A stretch of 64,000 bases of DNA from an uncultured Saprospiraceae bacterium (GTDB lineage: Bacteria > Bacteroidota > Bacteroidia > Chitinophagales > Saprospiraceae): assembly GCA_937918905.1 (NCBI GenBank), contig CAKZSH010000028.1:59139-123138 (forward strand), read 5' to 3'. Position 1 is the first letter of the stretch. The number at the start of each line of letters is the position of its first letter. Made by a program: the position numbers and the translations under genes. Below are positions 1 to 10,900 of the stretch, piece after piece. The notes under the pieces are model-generated. The model did not search any database. It was not told the DNA's origin and saw nothing but the letters and a program-made list of their open reading frames with translations.

Positions 1-1
1 G

Positions 2-1021
2 GTTTCAGATGCAGGCTATAATCAAATCCCGTTAACTACATTTGGAGATTGGAGAGCGATTTTGTCGTTTGTAATTCATGCAGGATTAGGTGTGTTTGCG
101 TTGTTAAATTTTAATAAAAAATCCATCTTCAGTTTTGCTATTCTATTTTATATTTTGACTTTTTCCATTACTTCAAATGTCGTTTTTAATATTGGGACAA
201 GTTATGCTGAGCGGTTGTTATATGTACCTGTTTTAGGATTTACATTGGCATTGAGTTATGGATTATTGAAGTTATTTAAGTTGGATGAAAAACGGAGTTC
301 TAAATTTTCATTGAATAATTTTTTCCAAAAAAATATGGTACCGCTTGGTCTTTTAGCAATTATCACGGTTGCATTTTCTTTTAAAACAATTGATCGAAAT
401 AGTGTTTGGAAAGATAGTTTTACCCTGTATGATACAGATACTAAAATCTCTCCTGAATGTGGCAAATTGCAATATCATTATGGTTTGGAATTAATGAAAA
501 AGGGATTAGAAGCAACAGGTAACGAGAAGATGGAGGTCATGAATAAAGCAAGAGAAACTTTCGAAAAGGCCACTCAAATTTATCCAAAATACCATGATGC
601 TTATGCTCAACTTGGATTATGGCACTACAGGTTGTCAAAGAATAATGTGGCTCAAAAAGAACAATTGCAACAAGTGGCTTTGGAAAATTATCAAAAAGCT
701 ATTGAACATAAACCCAACAATGCTAAGGCATATAGTAATATGGGGATAATTTATTTTGAAAAAAGCCAAATTGCTGAACAGCAAGGTAATCTCGGACAAG
801 CGCAAAATTTTTTAAATCAAGCCAAACAAGTTTATGAAAAAGCAGTTAGTTTTGATCCTCGATATGTGGATGGATTGATGAATTTAGGAGTGGTCAATGC
901 GATGCAAAAAAACTTTCCTCAAGCCATAAAGTATTTTGAAGAAGGAATAAAATATTCAACTGATTCCAAGAAGATTGAGACCTTGAAAGGTTATTTGAAT
1001 AGCGCACGGCAAGGGAAGTAA
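2..1021 (+). CDS. C-terminal part of a membrane plus TPR-repeat protein (TMTC/DUF1736-like); the 5' end lies outside the window
   Basis: The frame is open from nt 2, upstream of the listed TTG at 62. Hydrophobic helices are followed by a YAERLLYVPVLGF motif (DUF1736/TMTC-type, as I recall), then TPR-like units (YPKYHDAYAQLG, KPNNAKAYSNMG, DPRYVDGLMNLG). Confidence 0.6.
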   Translation, partial: VSDAGYNQIPLTTFGDWRAILSFVIHAGLGVFALLNFNKKSIFSFAILFYILTFSITSNVVFNIGTSYAERLLYVPVLGFTLALSYGLLKLFKLDEKRSSKFSLNNFFQKNMVPLGLLAIITVAFSFKTIDRNSVWKDSFTLYDTDTKISPECGKLQYHYGLELMKKGLEATGNEKMEVMNKARETFEKATQIYPKYHDAYAQLGLWHYRLSKNNVAQKEQLQQVALENYQKAIEHKPNNAKAYSNMGIIYFEKSQIAEQQGNLGQAQNFLNQAKQVYEKAVSFDPRYVDGLMNLGVVNAMQKNFPQAIKYFEEGIKYSTDSKKIETLKGYLNSARQGK

Positions 1022-1022
1022 T

Positions 1023-1168
1023 GACGGTAGACGGTCGCTTCGCTTGACGGTGGACGGTGGACGGTGGACGGACGCTGCGCTTGACGGACCGAATAATTTT
1101 GAATTCACGTTATTTCGATCCGTCCAGCAAAGCGGCCGTCTAACGTCGAGCGAAGCGACCGTCAACCG
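1023..1168. repeat. Long imperfect hairpin, GC-rich, with arms made of tandem heptamers (tggacgg x3)
   Basis: gacggtcgcttcgct...(tggacgg)3...gacggaccgaataa pairs with ttatttcgatccgtcc...agcgaagcgaccgtc. It starts 2 nt after the stop codon at 1019-1021. Confidence 0.8.
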
Positions 1169-1175
1169 AAAAAAA

Positions 1176-1202
1176 AACGCCCCGCAAAAATGCGAGGCGT
1201 TT
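1176..1202. terminator. Bidirectional intrinsic terminator between convergent genes
   Basis: Stem aacgccccgca / tgcgaggcgtt with loop aaaa. An A-run precedes it and T-rich sequence follows. Confidence 0.7.
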
Positions 1203-1242
1203 GTAAGTTTTGGTTATGTTATTGCGATGGGTTCATAAGGAA

Positions 1243-3159
1243 TTATTCCTTACCACCATCCAATTCATCTTGATATACTTTCAATTCATCGAACTTACCA
1301 GAAGCAGCTAATTTAGCTTGTTTTGGCCAAGTTGTTGGATTGTGCATTTTGTAACGAGGACCAGCATTTTCTAAGATTTCTTTTAACTCATCAGCATGAG
1401 TGTCAGCAAGATCATCCCAGTTTTTGATGCCAGCAGCATGTAATAATTTTTCAATCTTTGGTCCGATACCTTCTACAATTTGAAGATACTCCGATCGGTA
1501 ACCTGCAGTTCCATTACCTTTTTTAAGTACTGCTTTTTCTCTTACCATTTCCACAGATTTTACGGACTGTGTATTGGTATTTAAAGTAACAGGTACTTCT
1601 TTGATAACTTGTACTTCTTTAATGACTTCTACCTCTTTGATGACTTCCACAGGTACTTCCTTAATCACTTCTACTTCTTTAAAGACGGTAACTTCAACAG
1701 GTACTTCTTTGATGACCTCCACTTTTACCTCTTTGATGACTTCCACTTCTTTGATGACTTCAACAGGCACCTCTTTAATTACTTCTTTAATGACTTCTAC
1801 CTCTTTAATCACTTCAACAGGAATCTGTTTAATCATTTCAACTGGCTTGACCACTTCTATCTCTTTGATCACTTCAACAGGAACTTCCTTAATGATTTCT
1901 ACTTCTTTGATCACTTCTACTTCTTTAATCACTTCAACGGGTACTTCCTTAATTATCTCCACTTCTTTAATCACTTCAACTTCCACTTCTTTTTCTACTA
2001 CAACGGGAACTTCTTTAATGACTTCCACTTCTTTGATTACCTCAACTTCTCTAATCATTTCAACAGGAACTTCTTTGATGACTTCTACTTGAACCTCTTT
2101 AATGACCTCTACTTCTTTAATCACTTCAACAGGAACTTCCTTGATAACTTCAACATTTCTCACTACATCCACTTCTTTAATTACCTCCACTTCTACTTCT
2201 TTAATTACCTCTACTTCTTTGATAACTTCCACAGGTACTTCCACATTTCTGATGACATCCACTTCTTTAATGACCTCCACAGGTACTTCCACATTTCTGA
2301 TGACCTCTACTTCTTTGATTACTTCCACAGGCACTTCTTTAATCACCTCTACTTCTTTGATTACTTCTACAGGTACCTCTTTGATTACTTCAACTTCCAC
2401 TTCTTTAATCACCTCTACTTCTTTAATGATAGGCACTTCTTTTGTGGTCATAACTTCTTTGATCACCTCCACTTCCTGAACAATAGGCACTTCTTTAATC
2501 ACCTCTACCTCCTTCATTATTTCTATCTCTTTGATTATTTCTACAGGCACTTCTTTAATTACCTCTACTTCTTTAATTACTTCAACCTCCTTAATTACTT
2601 CCACAGGCACTTCTTTGATTACCTCTACTTCAACAATTTTTTCAACAACAACTTCTCTCACCATATCAACAGATTTGAGACTTTGCATGCTATTGTTGAT
2701 TTCCACAGGTACTTCTTTGATGACCTCCACTTCTTTTACAATTTCTACCACTCTTTCCACAGGTACTTCTTTGATTACCTCTATTTCTTTAATCACTTCC
2801 ACAGGTACCTCTTTAATTACTTCAATTTCCACAGGTACTTCTTTGATTACCTCTATTTCTCTTTCAATAACTTCAGGTTGAATGTTTTTTGCGGTTTGAT
2901 AGTCTAATTCCAATGAAGCAAATCTATTTTGAAGACCTGCATATTCATTTTCAGTTTTCTCTTTTGCTACAAGAGCATTTTGTAAATCTCCTTGGACTGT
3001 ACCAATTTTGGCATCTCTTTCACTTAATAGCCCAGTATACTTTGATGAAATGGAAGAACTTCCAAACCATCGGCCAAGTAACCAAGACAAAAACCCAAAT
3101 AATAATATAGGGAGCCAACAAAGGAAATTAAAAAGCAATAATGAACTTAAAAACGTCAT
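1243..3159 (-). CDS. Membrane-anchored repeat protein: N-terminal TM helix, short coiled coil, dozens of EVIKEVPVEV-type repeats, C-terminal helix-hairpin-helix (H3TH, COG3743-like) module
   Basis: 638-aa ORF. N-terminus is LLLFNFLCWLPILLFGFLSWLLG. The C-terminus EGIGPKIEKLLHAAGIKNWDDLA...TTWPKQAKLAASGKFDELKVYQDELDGG matches the HhH tail I recall from COG3743-type proteins. Confidence 0.75.
   Translation of the reverse strand: MTFLSSLLLFNFLCWLPILLFGFLSWLLGRWFGSSSISSKYTGLLSERDAKIGTVQGDLQNALVAKEKTENEYAGLQNRFASLELDYQTAKNIQPEVIEREIEVIKEVPVEIEVIKEVPVEVIKEIEVIKEVPVERVVEIVKEVEVIKEVPVEINNSMQSLKSVDMVREVVVEKIVEVEVIKEVPVEVIKEVEVIKEVEVIKEVPVEIIKEIEIMKEVEVIKEVPIVQEVEVIKEVMTTKEVPIIKEVEVIKEVEVEVIKEVPVEVIKEVEVIKEVPVEVIKEVEVIRNVEVPVEVIKEVDVIRNVEVPVEVIKEVEVIKEVEVEVIKEVDVVRNVEVIKEVPVEVIKEVEVIKEVQVEVIKEVPVEMIREVEVIKEVEVIKEVPVVVEKEVEVEVIKEVEIIKEVPVEVIKEVEVIKEVEIIKEVPVEVIKEIEVVKPVEMIKQIPVEVIKEVEVIKEVIKEVPVEVIKEVEVIKEVKVEVIKEVPVEVTVFKEVEVIKEVPVEVIKEVEVIKEVQVIKEVPVTLNTNTQSVKSVEMVREKAVLKKGNGTAGYRSEYLQIVEGIGPKIEKLLHAAGIKNWDDLADTHADELKEILENAGPRYKMHNPTTWPKQAKLAASGKFDELKVYQDELDGGKE
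1555..2877 (-). repeat. In-frame tandem coding repeats (15/30-nt periodicity) encoding (E/V)VIKEVPVEV units
   Basis: Repeated gaagt(a/g)at(c/t)aaagaagt(a/g)cctgt(g/t)gaa-type DNA units on the minus strand. They generate several spurious antisense ORFs. Confidence 0.9.
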
Positions 3160-3634
3160 AGTATTTTAATCTTTTACTAAATGGTTAAAAAAATGGATTT
3201 GTTTGGGTAATATGTTACCATATTACCAATTAGATAAAGTTTTTAGGGTTAATTTTAACTGAAAGGAATTAGTATTTTGTATATGTAGAAGTGTTCAGAC
3301 CGAAAGATAGTGAAAAAAGTTAAATTCAAAAAAAAATCTGATATTTATTTGTTTTCTTATTTATTGAGGAATACCGCTTTATGTAACATTTTTTTTTATA
3401 TACATTTTTTTTATAATTATAAATGCCTATCATAATTAAAACTCTGATATTAATTTTTTTTTCTAGAATTCAAAAGATTTAATTAAATTTACGGTCGGTG
3501 AGATTTTTTAGAGGACAAAAATCATAAAAGTTCTCTTCTTTCTCAACTCTTATTAAACCAATCCTACAACTACATCCAAACTTATTTTCAAACAAAACCT
3601 GGAATGACCTTCCAGTCAAAATTTACCTTTTCTT

Positions 3635-4483
3635 ATGAATAATACTACCTTAGGAATTTTATCTGCAATTTTTATTCTTTTAGGTTCTTGGCTTGTTTCT
3701 AGCTTCACTTGTGGAGGCGGAGATGCAGCTAAATTTTCTGTACTGGATGGAACGCTGAATATAGAAAATGTTGAACCATACTCATTTGGAATGAATAGTG
3801 CTAAATTGGCACTTCCTTCTGAAACCTCTACTGCTTTCAAGAAAATCGCAACACATTTACAAAAAAATGATACTCGAACATTAAGTTTGATCGGGAATTA
3901 TTATAGTTCAGAAAATACTAAAAACGATACTGATTTAGGACTTGCTCGTGCTGAAGTGATAAAAGATAGATTAGTAAAAATGAAAGCACCTGAAAGTAGC
4001 ATTATCATTTCTAGTCGAAGACTTAATAATATCGATGGTTCTTCTGACGAAGCAATGTTATTGCCAGTTGATTTTATTTTCTCTGAAAAGACTTCAGGGA
4101 GTTCTATGAGTGATGGAGGTGAAACTACTGATGTTTCTGGTGGAGATGCAGCTTCTTTACTTGATGGATTTGTGATTACCTATGAAGATGGAAATACTTC
4201 ATTTAAAACTACTGATGAATTACAAGCTTTTATTGAAACTGCTCAAACATTCGTTAATGATAATCCTGATGGAAAAGTAGTTATTACAGGTCATACCGAT
4301 GATTCAAGAAGTTCAAAGCGTAGCGAAGAACTTTCTAAAGATCTTGCAATGAAAGTGAGAAGAATTTTTAGAACCGCAGGATTCGATAGAAAAAATATTG
4401 AGGTAGTGGCTAAGGGAAAATCTGAAATGTTGGATGATCCTGCACTAAGTAGAAGAATTGTTTTGACGATGGAATCAAATTAA
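3635..4483 (+). CDS. OmpA-family (peptidoglycan-associating) lipoprotein or secreted protein
   Basis: Signal-like N-terminus. The C-terminal VVITGHTDDSRSSKRSEELSKDLAMKVRR resembles the OmpA_C motif (GHTD...N..LS..RA). A degenerate second copy sits at LIGNYYSS...DLGLARAEVIKDRL. Confidence 0.6.
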   Translation: MNNTTLGILSAIFILLGSWLVSSFTCGGGDAAKFSVLDGTLNIENVEPYSFGMNSAKLALPSETSTAFKKIATHLQKNDTRTLSLIGNYYSSENTKNDTDLGLARAEVIKDRLVKMKAPESSIIISSRRLNNIDGSSDEAMLLPVDFIFSEKTSGSSMSDGGETTDVSGGDAASLLDGFVITYEDGNTSFKTTDELQAFIETAQTFVNDNPDGKVVITGHTDDSRSSKRSEELSKDLAMKVRRIFRTAGFDRKNIEVVAKGKSEMLDDPALSRRIVLTMESN

Positions 4484-4554
4484 TTTTGATAGAGAATTTC
4501 AAATTTGAATAAATCAAATCGAGATTCTTCATATAAATCGTTAATAAAAAAAAA

Positions 4555-4586
4555 ACGCCTTGGCTAGATTAGTCAAGGCGTTTTTT
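4555..4586 (+). terminator. Intrinsic terminator
   Basis: Stem acgccttg / caaggcgt with an 11-nt loop, followed by TTTTTT. Confidence 0.7.
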
Positions 4587-4593
4587 ATATTTG
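4586..4593 (+). promoter_or_regulatory. Candidate Bacteroidota -7 box (TATATTTG) upstream of folD
   Basis: Exact TAnnTTTG match 89 nt upstream of the ATG. I saw no clear -33 TTTG. Confidence 0.3.
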
Positions 4594-4681
4594 TAACAAA
4601 TTTTAAATCCTCCCAATTATTGGGACAAAAAATCTAAAAAAATATTTAGAATAACACTACTAATAATTAATTTTCTATTCT

Positions 4682-5569
4682 ATGACAAATCTTATCGATG
4701 GTAAAACTTTAGCTAATACCATAAAGGAAGAAATTGCACTCGAAGTTAATGAAATCAGGGAAAATGATGGAAAAATTCCTCATCTAGCAGCCATTTTAGT
4801 TGGAGAAGATGCAGCAAGTCAAGTGTATGTAAGGAATAAAGTTCGTTCATGTGAACAGGTTGGTTTTGAATCTACTTTAATTCGAAAAGATACTTCTACC
4901 ACAGAGGAAGAACTACTTGCAATAGTTGAAGATTTAAATAATGATCCTGAGATTGATGGATTTATCGTTCAGCTGCCTTTACCTAAACATATCAATGAAG
5001 AAAAAATAACTCTTGCCATTGATCCAAAGAAAGACGTTGATGGTTTTCATCCTGCCAATTTCGGTAGAATGGCTCAAGGGCTTCCCGCTTATTTGCCAGC
5101 TACTCCATTTGGAATTATGCAAATGTTGGATCGGTATAATATTGAGGTAGAAGGGAAGGAGTGTGTGGTATTAGGTAGAAGTAATATTGTAGGTACCCCA
5201 ATAAGTATTCTTTTATCAAGAAAAGCCCAACCTGGAAATGCAACAGTTTCGCTGTGTCATAGTCGTACTCAAGATTTAAAATCTCATACTTTAAGAGCCG
5301 ATATTATTGTAGCTGCACTCGGTATTCCTGAATTTTTAAGAGGTGATATGGTAAAAGAAGGTGTTGTTATTATTGATGTTGGAATTAATAGAGTCGATGA
5401 TTCTACCGCAAAACGAGGTTACCGATTAAAAGGTGATGTCCATTTTGAAGAAGTTGCTCCTAAAGCAAGTTTTATTACTCCCGTACCTGGTGGAGTAGGT
5501 CCTATGACTGTTACTTCACTATTAATGAATACGTTGAAAGCATCTCGTGGAGATATTTATGGAAAATGA
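4682..5569 (+). CDS. folD: Bifunctional 5,10-methylene-tetrahydrofolate dehydrogenase / methenyl-THF cyclohydrolase
   Basis: Full-length match to the FolD pattern: [57 protein letters not shown]. Confidence 0.95.
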
Positions 5570-5653
5570 TAAATACGTCTTTTTACGTTGGACGGTTTAT
5601 GTTTTACGGTCTACGGTTTTCGATAACTGTAAAACGTGAAAAGCAAAATATTT

Positions 5654-5850
5654 TTAACAATATTCGTAATTATTCAGTATTGGGTGTACACGAGTCAAGG
5701 TTTGACTTCTCAAGTCAAGCCTTGACTTATAAGAACATCAATTATAAGTCAGGCTTTGACTTATAAGAACGTCAATTATAAGTCAAAGCCTGACTTTTTA
5801 AGTCAGACCTTGACTCGTGTACAGCCAATGTTGAATAGTTAACAATATTC
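5654..5850. repeat. Copy A of the AAGTCAR-N3-YTGACTT / TGTACACGAG inverted-repeat element (core 5685-5823), MITE-like
   Basis: Five 17-bp palindromic units lie between the termini tgtacacgagtcaagg and ccttgactcgtgtaca. The outer arms attattcagtattgg / ccaatgttgaatag also pair. A 12-bp direct repeat ttaacaatattc sits at both ends (5654-5665 and 5839-5850). Confidence 0.85.
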
Positions 5851-6129
5851 ATATGAAAAATTAAGTTAATAGGTTGTAAGTATTATTTTTTTTTGAAATA
5901 TATTTCTTTTATCTCGTTTTTTTTTGAATATGTTCGATTAAAATATTTACTTTTGCTTTAGAACTAATATACCAACGAAACTTTCCTTTCACCAACCTTC
6001 TAAATCCTTCCTTATTTTATTTGAATCCTGACTTGTCTTTATACAAGACATAATACCTTTGTCAAAAGTTATTTATGCTAATCCATATTTGGCTTTTTCG
6101 CAAATTTATTTTTAAAACTAATTTTAAAT

Positions 6130-6738
6130 ATGGCCTTAAATTCTATACTCCCATTACTCATGACTTTCATGATGAACACCTTCTCTATATCCCAGTCCAC
6201 TCAAGATTTAACAACTTTGGGATTAAAAATAATGCAGGATGGAAAGGAATACGCTATCCTCTCTACTGAACAAAATATCAAATTGGCAAAAGACAAATTT
6301 GAAATCATTTTTAACCTAAAAAAAGATGATGATATTGCTGAGAAATATTTTGCCGCAAGAATTGTAGCAGATATTGATTCTGATATTTTTAAACAGTTTG
6401 AACCAAAAAAGAAGTTTGAAGAAGTTCCCTCTCTAGTAGCTGGTACAAGTATGGCTGGCCCCAAAGATGCTCCCTATAATTGTATATTTTTTGACGACCA
6501 AGCCCACCATTACATTTTCTATAATAACGAAGATGAAAAACGTGCGAATCTCATTTCAAAAGAAAACAATCTTTTGCAACTTGGATTTGATATTGAAAAT
6601 TACTGCATGCAGGACTTCGAAATCAATATCAGTAATTCCAATTTCGAAGCAATTTATATGGTGTTTTTTATTGATAAAAACCTAAATGAAATAGTAGAAG
6701 AAGGTGAATATGCCAAGTTGAAAATCACTTTTGAATGA
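6130..6738 (+). CDS. Hypothetical protein, probable signal peptide
   Basis: 202-aa ORF with a hydrophobic N-terminus. No motif recognised. Confidence 0.5.
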   Translation: MALNSILPLLMTFMMNTFSISQSTQDLTTLGLKIMQDGKEYAILSTEQNIKLAKDKFEIIFNLKKDDDIAEKYFAARIVADIDSDIFKQFEPKKKFEEVPSLVAGTSMAGPKDAPYNCIFFDDQAHHYIFYNNEDEKRANLISKENNLLQLGFDIENYCMQDFEINISNSNFEAIYMVFFIDKNLNEIVEEGEYAKLKITFE

Positions 6739-6759
6739 AGGGAATGTACCTGTCAAGAT

Positions 6760-6972
6760 GTATGAGTGTATTTATGTATATGTTGTCGAAATAATAGTGA
6801 AAGCGTTTTTATGATCCTTAGCCATCAGATTTATATCCGACGGTCACAGAACAAAATACTACTGACCCGCTTTTTTGAGAGTCTCAAAATTATCAATAGT
6901 CTTTTGAATACACTCCATACCTCATAAATAATCATAATTATTTCGACAACATATACACCTACACACTCATAC
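6760..6972. repeat. Inverted repeat with ~36-bp arms and a ~140-nt loop
   Basis: gtatgagtgtatttatgtatatgttgtcgaaataat pairs with attatttcgacaacatatacacctacacactcatac. Confidence 0.8.
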
Positions 6973-6990
6973 ACCTTAACACATTTTTCT

Positions 6991-6998
6991 TACATTTG
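6991..6998 (+). promoter_or_regulatory. Candidate -7 box TACATTTG for prmA
   Basis: Exact TAnnTTTG 28 nt upstream of the ATG at 7026. The listed TTG start at 6996 lies inside this box, which argues for the ATG start. Confidence 0.45.
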
Positions 6999-7025
6999 GG
7001 GTTCAAAAAAAGCAAACCTATCCAC

Positions 7026-7850
7026 ATGGATTATTTCAAATTTGAATTCCAAACCACTTCACAAAATGCCGAAATGCTCATTGCATTGCTTGGCGAACTT
7101 CCCTTCGATGTTTTTGAGGAAACCGATACTGGTCTTGATGCATTTATTCCTACTGAAAAATGTACAGAAACAGTAGAAAATGAGGTGCTTCAAATAAAAA
7201 ATCTTTTCGATTTTTCCTACCAAAAAGTATTTATTAAATATCAAAACTGGAATGCTGTTTGGGAATCAAATTTCCAACCCATTGTAGTCCGAGATTTTTG
7301 TGGAATCCGAGCTGATTTTCACGATCCTATTCCAAATATTCAACATGAAATTATCATTAATCCTCAAATGGCTTTTGGTACGGGGCATCATGAAACCACT
7401 TGGATGATGATGGATATGATGCAAAATATTGATTTTGTTGACAAAAATGTCTTTGATTATGGTTGTGGAACTGGAATTTTAGCCATTTTAGCGAGTCAAT
7501 TAGGTGCAAAAAAAATTGATGCGTTGGATATAGAATTGCCATCGTATGAAAACACTTTGGAAAATTCCCGTATAAATAACATCCAAAACGTCAATTCTAT
7601 TCATGGAACGCTTGAAAAGACTAAGGATTTTGAATATGACCTCATTTTAGCAAACATTAATCGGCACGTAATTTTAGACAGCTTCTCGACGTTAAATAAT
7701 ATGTTACCTCTTCAAGGTATTTTGTTGATTTCTGGAATCTTAAAATCAGATGAAAATTTAGTTTTGGAAGCTGCTCAACAAAATGGTTTTCATAACGAAA
7801 AAATAAACCGAAAAAATAATTGGATTTGCATTCAATTAACTAAAAAATAA
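7026..7850 (+). CDS. prmA: Ribosomal protein L11 methyltransferase
   Basis: Contains PrmA motifs FGTGHHETT and DYGCGTGILAI (SAM-binding GxGxG). The start is moved to the in-frame ATG at 7026. Confidence 0.9.
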   Translation: MDYFKFEFQTTSQNAEMLIALLGELPFDVFEETDTGLDAFIPTEKCTETVENEVLQIKNLFDFSYQKVFIKYQNWNAVWESNFQPIVVRDFCGIRADFHDPIPNIQHEIIINPQMAFGTGHHETTWMMMDMMQNIDFVDKNVFDYGCGTGILAILASQLGAKKIDALDIELPSYENTLENSRINNIQNVNSIHGTLEKTKDFEYDLILANINRHVILDSFSTLNNMLPLQGILLISGILKSDENLVLEAAQQNGFHNEKINRKNNWICIQLTKK

Positions 7851-7934
7851 CGGTGAACTGTGAACTGGTAACTTCGAATAAATTGGAATTGACCATAATT
7901 TCGAAGTTAACAGTTCAACGTTCACAGTTCACCG
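7851..7934. repeat. Hairpin built from (g/t)tgaac(t/g) heptamers, starting directly after the prmA stop codon
   Basis: cggtgaactgtgaactggtaacttcgaa pairs with ttcgaagttaacagttcaacgttcacagttcaccg, followed by an A-run. Confidence 0.85.
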
Positions 7935-7956
7935 TTAAAAAAAAAATTCCGATCTT

Positions 7957-10900
7957 ATGATTAAAAAAATACTATCCTCAGTTTTTGTAATTTTATTGTT
8001 ATGTGGCACACTAAATGCCCAACAAGACAATATTTTCCCAGAGAATAGAGCTGATTTTCTCAAACAATTCAAGGAGTTTTTTAATAAAAGTAAAAGCAAG
8101 GATATGGAGTCTTTTTTCAAAGACTTTGAATCTTATTTTCATAATAGTATTTCAGAGGAAGAGTTTCCATTACTTAGAGATGCATGTAATGAGATGCTAG
8201 GAAAAAAAATGTCTGCAAATCCATATTTCAAAAAATACCTTTCTGTTGTTTTAGCAATAAAAAAGAATGATGGAGTAAGTGCGAAACTTAATGAATGGAA
8301 CGAGGTTACGGTTGCAATGGTCAAGGCAATAAAAAATAGAAAACTAAAGCCTTTCAAAAATTACCTCGATTTTTCAGAATCATTTTTTGGACAAAATGCT
8401 TTACGATATTCAAAGCAAGGGATTAAATGGTACTACGAATCTGATAAATATAATTTAAAACTAGAAGATGGAGTTCCTTTAGTAGATTTTGAAAAAATGA
8501 ACTTGATAGGAACAAGAGGGAAAGATTCGATTGTGATACAAGAGACTGTCGGACAATATTATCCCACACAATTAAAATGGAAAGGTACTGGAGGAAAAGT
8601 AACATGGGAAAAGCTAGATCAACCTGACGTGTATTGTTTGTTGAATGATTATGAAATAGAGACTAAAAAAAGTTTATACAAAGCGAAAAATGTTCGATTA
8701 GTTTATCCTGAATTATTTCCAGGAGAGGAAATTGATGGTGATTTTGAAGATAAAGTTGTGGTTAGAAATAAATCAAGAGAGGGTTCTTATCCAAGATTTC
8801 TTTCCTATGAAAAAATTTTAAAAGTAAATAATATTGGAGAAGGCATCGAATACCAAGGAGGTTTTCGATTGGAAGGAAATACGGTATATGGTTATGGTAG
8901 TAAGGATACCCCTTCGGAAATTATCGTAAAAAGTGGGGGCAAAACTTCTTTCCGAGCCACCTCACAATTGTTTAAAATACGGAAGAGTGAACGTATCACA
9001 GGAGAACAAGTAAAAGTAGTGTTATATTTTGATCAGGATTCCATTTACCATCCATCGGTTAATCTCAAATATGATATAATAACTAAAGATTTGAATTTAG
9101 CAAGGGGAAAAAGAGGAAGTGATAGAAATCCATATTTTAACTCCTACCATCAAGTAAACATTAACGCTGATAAAATTGATTGGAACTTAGAAAGTGATAG
9201 TCTTTTGATTGGGAAAAAACAATTTGGATTAGGAAATGGGAAGAATGAAGTTACTTTTGAAAGTTTAAAATATTATGACGAAAAATATATCCTTAGGGTT
9301 CAAAATATTTCGGATGTCAATCCTATTGTAACTTTAAAAGTTTTGTCAGAGGAACTAGAACGAAGAGATATTGAAGCTCCTGAATTTGCACAAAAATTAA
9401 ACCCTCGTTTTGATACTAAAAATATTGAAAGTTTATTGTACGAGTTAGTTTCCAATGGTTTTGTGGATTATGATCAAGATGAGGAAATCGTCTATGTCAA
9501 AGATAAAATTTTTCATTATGCAGATGCAATGGCAAAGAAAACAGATTACGATGCCATCAAATTAGTCTCGACTGCTGAGAAAGATGCCAATGCTGTTTTT
9601 TCTATAAAAGATAAGTCACTTCAAGCCAATTCAGTTACCCAATTGGAGATTAACAAAAAACAAAAAGTGGCGATCAAACCAGCCAACAAATCCATCACTA
9701 TGCAAAAAAATAGAGATATGGATTTTGGAGGAAAAATCTTTGCAGGATTTAGTGTCTTGGAAGGAAAAGATTTCCACTTTGATTATGAGAAATATTTGAT
9801 GACTTTGGATTCTGTTCGGTATTTTGATTTATTTGTGCCAACTGAAGCCAAGGATGAAAATGGAGATCCCGTTTCTATTTCTATTGCTTCAAGAATTGAA
9901 CATACGAATGGAGTACTTTTAGTTGACTCTCCAAATAATAAAGCGGGTGCAGAGGATATTGATATTTTTCCTTCTTTTAATACCAAAGATTACTCCTACG
10001 TATATTACGATAATCGAAATATACATGATGGTGTTTACAAAAGGGATTCCTTTTATTTCAAATTAGATAAGTTTAGTTTTAACAGCCTTGATAATTTTAC
10101 CAAAGACGATATCCGATTTAAAGGAAATCTAGTCTCTGCTGATGTCTTTCCTGATTTTAAAGAAACATTACTCTTACAAGAAGAGGATCAATCTTTAGGT
10201 TTTACAACTCAAACTCCTTCGGCAGGTTTTCCTACCTACCAAGCCAAAGGAAATTACAAAGGAGAGATTCATATGAGCAACAAAGGGATGTTGGGAAAAG
10301 GAACCATTAATTATTTGACCTCTTCAACGGACTCTGAAGATATTTTATTTAAACCCAAACAAATGACTGCAACAGCAAGGTTGTTTGATTTGAGAGAAGA
10401 TCGACAAGGAGCTGTTGAAGTTCCACAGGCGCATGGTGAGGATATTCGGATTGACTGGAAACCCTACCAAGATAGTATGTATATTTTTACAAAGGAAAAT
10501 GCTTTTGAGTTGTTTAAAGAAAATGATCATAACATCACAGGAGGTTTGATTTTGACGCCAAATGGTTTGCGTGGAAATGGAAATATGAAATGGACAAAAG
10601 GTAGCCTAAAGTCAACATTAATAAAGTTTGGAGCATTCTCTGCCAATGCTGATACTTCCCGACTTCAAATTAATGCAGTAGGAACAAGTGCATTAGCATT
10701 GGATACTGATAATGTAAATAGTAAGTTGGATTTTGATAAACAAATGGGATATGTAGAAGCTAATGAAAAAGGACATTTTACTGAATTACCATTTAATCAA
10801 TATAAAACTTCGTTGACTACGTTTGATTGGGATATGAAGAATGATGCAATTACTTTTAAAACTGATCCAGGGCAAGTAGGAGCATTTGTTGCGACTGGAG

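Follow-up and report, generated by a model that had tools for sequence, protein, structure and literature searches.

The polar landmark proteins HubP and FimV combine a peptidoglycan-binding (LysM) periplasmic part with one transmembrane (TM) helix, a long, acidic and repetitive cytoplasmic region and an interaction domain, and serve as anchors fixed to the wall. ZipA is a bitopic anchor with its N-terminus outside and its C-terminus inside (N-out/C-in), in which a charged region and a long extended linker lead to a small, globular C-terminal binding domain. Small acidic domains of the helix-hairpin-helix (HhH) type, such as AR1 and AR2 of NusA and the C-terminal domain of the RNA polymerase alpha subunit (alpha-CTD), are carried on flexible linkers and bind proteins rather than, or besides, DNA. 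Here we describe P0001, a protein encoded in a 64,000-nucleotide stretch of DNA from an uncultured Saprospiraceae bacterium (GenBank assembly GCA_937918905.1, contig CAKZSH010000028.1, positions 59,139 to 123,138; hereafter called the window, to which all coordinates refer). We give slightly better than an even chance to the interpretation that P0001 is the cytoplasmic arm of a peptidoglycan-pinned envelope tether made of two proteins, the other being the OmpA-like product of the adjacent gene.

Like ZipA, P0001 has a predicted N-out/C-in orientation, a charged region, a long linker and a small C-terminal domain. It differs from ZipA in that its linker, a repetitive rod, is constrained in sequence and four times longer, and in the presence of an OmpA-like partner gene; no Pfam match to ZipA_C was found in P0001. 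Compared with HubP and FimV, the wall-binding (OmpA-like) and cytoplasmic parts are here two separate polypeptides and the repeats are unrelated, no sequence similarity between P0001 and these landmark proteins having been found. The C-terminal module matched NusA and alpha-CTD marginally (TIGR01954, E 0.069; Foldseek 4mtn, E 1.0) and, unlike their domains, consists of a single HhH hairpin joined to a distinct helical half with a W-x-x-Q-A motif. The parts of P0001, with their positions in amino acids (aa), and its partner gene are the following. Structural statements refer to AlphaFold2 (AF2) models and their predicted local distance difference test (pLDDT) scores, hydropathy to the Kyte-Doolittle scale (KD19), and selection to the ratio of nonsynonymous to synonymous substitution (dN/dS).

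1243..3159, minus strand: complete coding sequence of the tether protein P0001 (638 aa plus stop); the start MT(F/I)LS is conserved in orthologues.
3067..3156, minus strand: N-terminal hydrophobic anchor, aa 2-31, with the motif C-W-L-P-I-L-L...W-L-L-G-R (KD19, AF2 helix); predicted to be N-out/C-in.
2887..3060, minus strand: helical, coiled-coil-like stalk, aa 34-91 (continuous AF2 helix, pLDDT 54-68); paralogues have long coiled coils at the equivalent place.
1588..2877, minus strand: repeat rod, aa 95-524, made of EVIKEV and EVIKEVPV units with 19 VPV (composition, autocorrelation, dN/dS).
1501..1587, minus strand: non-repetitive linker, aa 525-553, beginning TLNTNTQSVKSVEMVREKAVLKK, conserved in orthologues and with a short AF2 helix at 531-541.
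1246..1500, minus strand: C-terminal HhH module of the COG3743/DUF4332 type, aa 554-638 (profile matches; AF2 five-helix bundle).
3635..4483, plus strand: OmpA-like partner gene, encoding 282 aa; its product has a single TM helix at the N-terminus, closely followed by a Cys (SSFTCGG), and two peptidoglycan-binding stretches of the OmpA type (Pfam OmpA, E 7e-18).

The uninterrupted open reading frame of P0001 is a real, conserved protein-coding gene that is under strong purifying selection and has its own terminator. All parts of the protein showed a dN/dS of 0.03-0.25. Six independently assembled orthologues of 562-592 aa were collinear with it and kept its landmarks; five of them, from the same genus, measured 562, 562, 570, 576 and 584 aa, and a metagenomic copy about 592 aa, compared with 638 aa for P0001. 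This collinearity, together with a dN/dS of about 0.05, led us to reject the possibility of an artefactual or non-coding reading frame. Residues 2-31 form the sole strongly hydrophobic stretch (KD19 up to 2.18), and AF2, run with five orthologues, predicted a single continuous helix over residues 2-91 (pLDDT 54-83, about 80 in the anchor). The succession of a TM helix, a helix of about 60 residues, repeats and a C-terminal HhH domain, which had first been proposed in a sequence-only reading, thus held up in hydropathy, AF2 and profile searches. The repeat tract, put at about 440 residues in that reading, is present and measured about 430 (aa 95-524).

An OmpA-family gene adjoined the tether gene in all 13 TM-anchored loci with readable flanks (the window; C307 and C353 of the same genome; L051, L054, L056, L057, L072, L073, L075, L076, which encodes P0093, L077, which encodes P0088, and L079). 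The two genes were co-directional and a few to about 60 bp apart in 11 of these loci and divergent in the other 2, the divergent layout being retained in the same-genus orthologues. No OmpA-family neighbour was found beside the non-TM module proteins that we examined. We define a cassette by four features, all present in the window: a TM anchor of the C-x-W-L-P type at the N-terminus, a long rod, one or more C-terminal modules, and a neighbouring OmpA-family gene whose product has a single TM helix. The source genome contains three such cassettes with different rods: the one of P0001, with 430 aa of V/E/I/K/P repeats and one acidic module; C307, with a coiled coil of about 250 aa and two modules; and C353, with a coiled coil of about 650 aa and four basic modules. 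This interchangeability of rod types argues for a role of the middle part as a long spacer or scaffold. In the literature searched, the OmpA-plus-tether cassette appears to be undescribed, its parts being of known kinds.

In 12 of 14 tethers the helix has a cysteine at its periplasmic end, and in 13 of 14 partners a cysteine follows the helix by about 3-15 residues (Cys14 of P0001, at 3118-3120, and Cys26 of the OmpA-like partner, at 3710-3712), and in L030 both are lost (tether NWMYFVAS, partner ANFGGDS). An intermolecular disulfide between tether and partner is a tentative possibility raised by this pattern. A function in anti-phage defence (Zorya and others) was considered and found no support, PADLOC giving no match for P0001 and, for the partner, a weak generic match to the MotB/ZorB OmpA domain (E 0.0017).

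No Lys or Arg precedes the hydrophobic helix of P0001, and R30, K40, R48 and K51 follow it. The same was found in 13 related tethers, which have no Lys or Arg before the helix and 2-4 within the 15 residues after it; several of them start straight with M-C-x-L-(I/L)-P. From this charge pattern, and from the cytoplasmic location of the HhH module, indicated by its presence at the end of ribosomal proteins and glycogen enzymes, we infer that P0001 sits in the inner membrane by its N-terminal helix, N-out/C-in, with few residues outside. The question whether the HhH domain is cytoplasmic, raised in the sequence-only reading, would thus be answered in the affirmative. We considered the opposite arrangement, in which the helix is a signal anchor and the bulk of the protein a periplasmic rod acting with the OmpA-like protein in the manner of TonB or TolA. 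The spacers of TonB and TolA have a Pro/Glu/Lys/Val-rich look that the P0001 spacer superficially shares, and an OmpA/Pal-like neighbour would suit such a function. Yet, the charge distribution is the opposite of that of a signal anchor, the 28-residue hydrophobic run has no positive n-region, the module terminates proteins that are cytoplasmic, and no Pfam hit to TonB_C or TolA placed P0001 among these proteins, which makes this arrangement very improbable.

The module itself (aa 554-638), when modelled alone with a 35-sequence alignment, formed a five-helix bundle with a mean pLDDT of 85. The module matched the Pfam family HHH_5 (PF14520, cut-off 27 bits) with E 1.9e-5, the whole of P0001 scoring 23.1 bits and the isolated tail 25.5 bits, and the cut-off was passed by the relatives L018 (27.9 bits), P0088 (29.0 bits) and the L073 gene (28.7 bits). 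With DUF4332 (PF14229, cut-off 23.2 bits), P0001 scored 14.2 (whole) and 17.8 bits, and C150, a paralogue from its own genome, and P0088 passed with 25.0 and 27.0 bits. By these profiles the module family is HhH, with the P0001 copy lying just below the HHH_5 line. The module also matched the C-terminal extension of alphaproteobacterial NuoE (NCBIfam PRK12373, positions 323-390, E 7.6e-6), those of the ribosomal proteins L21 (PRK12278, E 1.3e-4) and S2, and protein-O of the RC-LH1 complex of Dinoroseobacter shibae (8yy9_O, residues 158-229; E 3.2e-6, and 2.8e-6 with profile A1). As judged through this similarity, rather than with the COG model, the tail is of the COG3743 type. In P0001 as in these proteins, the module is C-terminal and follows a flexible linker, and protein-O too has an N-terminal TM anchor. 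Identity with them is only about 30-35%, however, and the P0001 module belongs to a distinct Bacteroidota subfamily with the consensus ...AGPRYxMHxPxTWPxQA.... A search of the PDB with the module model using Foldseek gave nothing with an E value below 0.27, hence no significant neighbour; the best matches were HhH-bearing parts of Pol theta, the thumb of a Y-family polymerase, NusA and RadA, as well as SAM domains. FEN-1 or another 5'-nuclease, the bearers of the helix-3-turn-helix (H3TH) variant, did not occur among the 50 best hits. The tail had been described as an H3TH-like HhH domain of the COG3743 type; the HhH and COG3743 labels are supported by these searches and the H3TH label is not.

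The module is widespread. A profile built from the full-length orthologues matched at least 6,764 clusters at 50% identity, of which at least 4,086 with E <= 1e-10, almost all through the module; the repeat was covered as well in about seven of the best 150. In the source genome, 11 genes carry 16 modules. According to Pfam matches of their N-terminal parts, the module proteins of this genome include ribosomal proteins S1 and S16, a GT5/GT4 glycogen-synthase-like enzyme, an AMPK1_CBM glycogen-binding protein, in which an H1-like Lys-rich linker precedes the module, and an HTH_3 protein; two further ones combine a TM helix and a coiled coil with 2 and 4 modules. The S1, S16, GT5/GT4 and CBM48 proteins, all ending in the module, are encoded at C366:23110-25467, C103:3585-4607, C311:8720-10411 and C14:311-1054, respectively, and their linkers to the module are either acidic (E/V/P/A) or basic (K/A/P). 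In other genomes the module was found at the end of L27 (confirmed by Pfam), and the L27 and S2 cases occur in Saprospiraceae and Chitinophagaceae. Reading of the N-terminal sequence, without Pfam confirmation, added S16, S2 and CBM48 proteins (including one of Lewinella cohaerens DSM 23179), a membrane protein resembling a formate-dehydrogenase cytochrome b, and an Hdr/GlpC-like Fe-S protein. Initial guesses that the heads of L074 and L048 resemble HU and a phasin, respectively, were dropped for want of Pfam support. At L073 (6840-7817) and L079, which belong to two other genera, one or two genes come after the cassette whose products have two proprotein-convertase P-domains and end in the same HhH module; no obvious signal peptide was seen in the first residues read.

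A 2025 structural study notes that the C-terminal domain of protein-O is not resolved in the solved structures and terms its function obscure (PMC12079452). This was the only paper discussing the function of the module in the literature that we searched, where we found no functional study of COG3743 or DUF4332, or of the HhH extensions on ribosomal proteins.

The module was predicted in the sequence-only reading to bind nucleic acid, and one form that the tether could take is that of a nucleoid anchor, in which non-specific DNA binding by the module would let the protein link the chromosome to the membrane. The module has a canonical G-I-G-P-K hairpin with a conserved Lys, and its weak profile and fold matches include DNA-contacting HhH parts (Pol IV, Pol beta, RadA, Pol iota). 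It often follows H1-like linkers rich in Lys, Ala and Pro (C14, C346 and C333 of the same genome; L048, L060), the one in C14 matching Pfam HC2 with an E value of 4.9e-6, under the curated cut-off. The existence of tandem arrays with as many as 12 modules hints at a polymeric ligand, and in Halomonas the variants of PhaC2 bear this module or, in its place, an H1-like domain (PMC8686332). Against DNA binding, the P0001 module is acidic (12 K+R versus 16 D+E, net charge -4, isoelectric point 5.3) and is borne by a rod with a net charge of -56; it contains a single HhH motif and not an (HhH)2 pair. Most of the 783 modules identified in 253 related proteins are also net negative, the hairpin Lys being the only consistently basic position, and basic modules are limited to proteins with basic linkers. 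The charge of the module tracked that of the preceding 60 residues (Spearman 0.61, n = 54, the sequences, from the same genome and L029-L071, not being independent). The modules appear to fall into a basic class, carried by granule-type (CBM48) and H1-like proteins, and an acidic or neutral class, to which those of the ribosomal proteins and of the P0001 tether belong. These charges weaken the prediction of nucleic-acid binding, and we consider a nucleoid anchor possible but doubtful. Acidic HhH domains that bind proteins exist (AR1 and AR2 of NusA). The candidate ligands are thus of two kinds, nucleic acid (or the nucleoid) on the one hand and, by analogy with NusA, a protein partner shared by the modules on the other, and neither is strongly favoured.

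The rod (aa 95-524) is made up of Val (32%), Glu (26%), Ile (14.5%), Lys (12%) and Pro (5%), with no Ala or Gly. Its autocorrelation peaked at lags of 6, 8, 14 and 20 and was close to zero at all odd lags, indicating units of 6 (EVIKEV) and 8 residues (EVIKEVPV) instead of the penta- and decapeptides of the sequence-only reading. A single two-residue register runs unbroken through the 430 residues, one phase containing 113 Glu, 49 Ile and 24 Pro and the other 131 Val, 53 Lys, 15 Ile and 7 Arg. The two phases are thus E/I/P and V/K/I/R, and not strictly acidic and aliphatic as had been thought. Over residues 94-530, AF2 yielded no fold (pLDDT about 25), so that neither a beta-solenoid, which had been put forward, nor any other rod model can be claimed. 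The companion idea of an extended acidic spacer is supported.

At the DNA level, the tract had been expected to be near-perfect and highly recombinogenic. Yet, the 37 EVIKEV units are encoded by 27 different 18-mers, exact internal repeats reach 35 nt at most, and the rows reported by Tandem Repeats Finder for the tract have 61-95% matches. Such synonymous scrambling of the copies argues that the tract is not very recombinogenic and makes its collapse during short-read assembly unlikely. Compared with the five same-genus orthologues, the repeat had a dN/dS of 0.04-0.07, at synonymous sites that are near saturation (pS 0.55-0.8); this is as low as in the C-terminal domain and below the N-terminus. 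The orthologues share positional landmarks (NN..LK.VDMVREV, PVVIEKEVEVEV, VIKPVEMIKEIPVEV, PVEVTVFKEVEV and VPVTL.TNTQ), and all their indels correspond to whole repeat units, mostly in the middle of the tract. The length variation that had been anticipated is therefore real between species (562 to 638 aa). By virtue of the low dN/dS, the shared landmarks and the whole-unit indels, the repeat tract can be considered old, positionally stable and selected at the amino-acid level. A related observation was made at L080:310-933 (metagenome contig WLWF01000443.1), where a 208-aa protein has a short EVIKEVPVEVIKE tract that is flanked by an unrelated domain on the N-terminal side and by a coiled coil on the other. 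This protein has neither TM helix nor HhH module, indicating that this type of repeat also exists outside the tether architecture.

The composition of the rod recalls that of the epiplastins, which are proteins of protist membrane skeletons (articulins, alveolins or IMC proteins, and plateins). Epiplastins are defined by an ordinary head and tail and a medial domain rich in V/E/I/K/Q/P, poor in Ala and Gly and with many acid-base dyads, the articulin subclass being distinguished by more than three VPV (PMC6212826). P0001 agrees with both descriptions, its medial domain being 93% V/E/I/K/Q/P and 0% A+G, with 56 dyads and 19 VPV, its head corresponding to aa 1-94 and its tail to aa 525-638. In terms of structure, AF2 gave coil (pLDDT about 25) and the two-residue register fits strands. 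EVIKEVP is a near-permutation of the alveolin motif EKIVEVP, and the likeness extends to membrane association and to the non-repetitive nature of head and tail. Two homologues with a P0001-like architecture and VEKIVEKRVEVPVEK repeats, P0088 (632 aa) and P0093 (521 aa, on a 5.18-Mb contig), passed the gathering score of the Pfam alveolin family IMCp (PF12314, 21.1 bits) with 32.8 and 30.8 bits. In contrast to epiplastins, P0001 is bacterial and has its own TM helix, an HhH end and an OmpA-like gene partner, and its units have 6 and 8 residues as compared with the 12 reported for alveolins. In the literature searched, bacterial articulin-like proteins are mentioned for Caulobacter only, without context (PMC4303705, PMC6212826), and no paper ties them to Bacteroidetes, where repeats of the alveolin/articulin type appear to be undescribed.

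This resemblance raises the possibility of a bacterial epiplast, in which the V/E/I/K/P repeats self-assemble into a beta-sheet lamina under the inner membrane, pinned there by the TM helix and the OmpA-like partner, the HhH tail being an accessory adaptor. Besides the composition and the IMCp matches of the two homologues, it would explain why the repeat is under very strong purifying selection, as a mere spacer seldom is, and why it keeps the strict two-residue periodicity that beta strands require. On the other hand, neither P0001 nor two pieces of its repeat matched IMCp even at E <= 10, AF2 predicted no strand, and the coiled coils of the paralogous cassettes argue for a generic rod. Furthermore, the genome encodes one such protein where protists have many, and a likeness between low-complexity sequences can be convergent. 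We consider such a lamina unlikely. A fuller version, according to which Saprospiraceae build a counterpart of the epiplast, that is a beta-sheet layer riveted to peptidoglycan whose HhH modules recruit ribosomes, storage granules and other module-tagged machines, seems to us more unlikely still.

We favour instead the two-protein tether, which we picture as follows. The OmpA-like neighbour is a single-TM protein with peptidoglycan-binding domains in the periplasm. Tether and partner would associate through their TM helices, possibly aided by a Cys-Cys disulfide at the periplasmic face, and the complex would thereby be pinned to the cell wall. In the cytoplasm, the short coiled coil probably pairs two tether chains. 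It would be followed by the 430-residue acidic rod, with one E/I/P face and one V/K face, which is probably extended and beta-rich and would function as a scaffold or long spacer; the paralogous cassettes have an alpha-helical coiled coil instead. The HhH module would be a general docking unit, which the same lineage also attaches, through flexible linkers, to ribosomal proteins, glycogen enzymes and other machines. The tether would then keep the cytoplasmic structure that all these modules recognise at some remove from a wall-fixed point.

Several observations weigh against this model. The adjacency of the genes is the one line of evidence for a complex of the two proteins, and in the genus of the window itself these genes are divergent, 475 bp apart and do not form an operon. 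The extended, beta-rich nature of the rod is deduced from periodicity and composition, AF2 having provided no structure. As to the disulfide, the Cys is gone from the tether and kept in the partner at L079, and many partners hold two Cys that could pair with each other. In addition, the function of the module is called obscure in the study of protein-O (PMC12079452), and the source genome is an incomplete metagenome-assembled genome (MAG) in 372 contigs.

That genome amounts to 5.55 Mb with 34% G+C, and the nearest public records are likewise MAGs of uncultured Saprospiraceae. P0001 was absent, by exact look-up, from a collection of 15 billion proteins; nothing matched its N-terminal 100 aa in a word search, and a metagenome scan with its N-terminal 95 aa returned nothing. 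The metagenome scan with alignment A2 returned 3 loci only. The non-coding features next to the gene are the following.

1175..1202, minus strand: intrinsic terminator of the tether gene, in which a 12-bp stem leads into a T run, 41 nt past the stop codon.
3160..3634, no strand: AT-rich divergent intergenic region of 475 bp between the tether gene and the OmpA-like gene.

The stem and T run indicate that the tether gene terminates its own transcript. In the intergenic region, the Bacteroidota -7 box TAnnTTTG had a single match (3577-3584, minus strand), 418 nt upstream of the tether start codon, and no sigma-70-like site was found. Rfam gave sub-threshold noise only over window positions 1-8000. 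Convergent to the tether gene is a gene for a multi-TM protein with C-terminal TPR repeats (2-1021, open at the window edge), a neighbour that is kept only within the genus, with 61-64% identity. Between this gene and the tether terminator lies a GC-rich palindromic element of about 150 bp (1022-1172), with GACGGTG repeats and outer arms GACGGTCGCTTCGCT / AGCGAAGCGACCGTC, and a folding energy of -86 kcal/mol (z -9.6). Since it has 74 matches (both strands counted) on about 40 contigs of the same genome, often at contig ends, it looks like a member of a dispersed family resembling miniature inverted-repeat transposable elements (MITE) or repetitive extragenic palindromes (REP).

In P0001, an epiplast-like repeat is found in a defined setting, with its own membrane anchor, a conserved wall-binding partner gene and a docking module. 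P0001 offers a bacterial, expressible model of alveolin/articulin-type repeats, whose structure is unknown. The tether would also give a handle on the function of a widespread module (at least 4,000 clusters at 50% identity). If the cassette does link peptidoglycan to a cytoplasmic structure, it would be a novel means by which large filamentous Bacteroidota organise the interior of the cell. Should the epiplast counterpart, unlikely as we consider it, turn out to be true, it would be a new bacterial system of cytoskeleton or cytoplasmic organisation, and possibly a prokaryotic source or a convergent twin of the alveolins.

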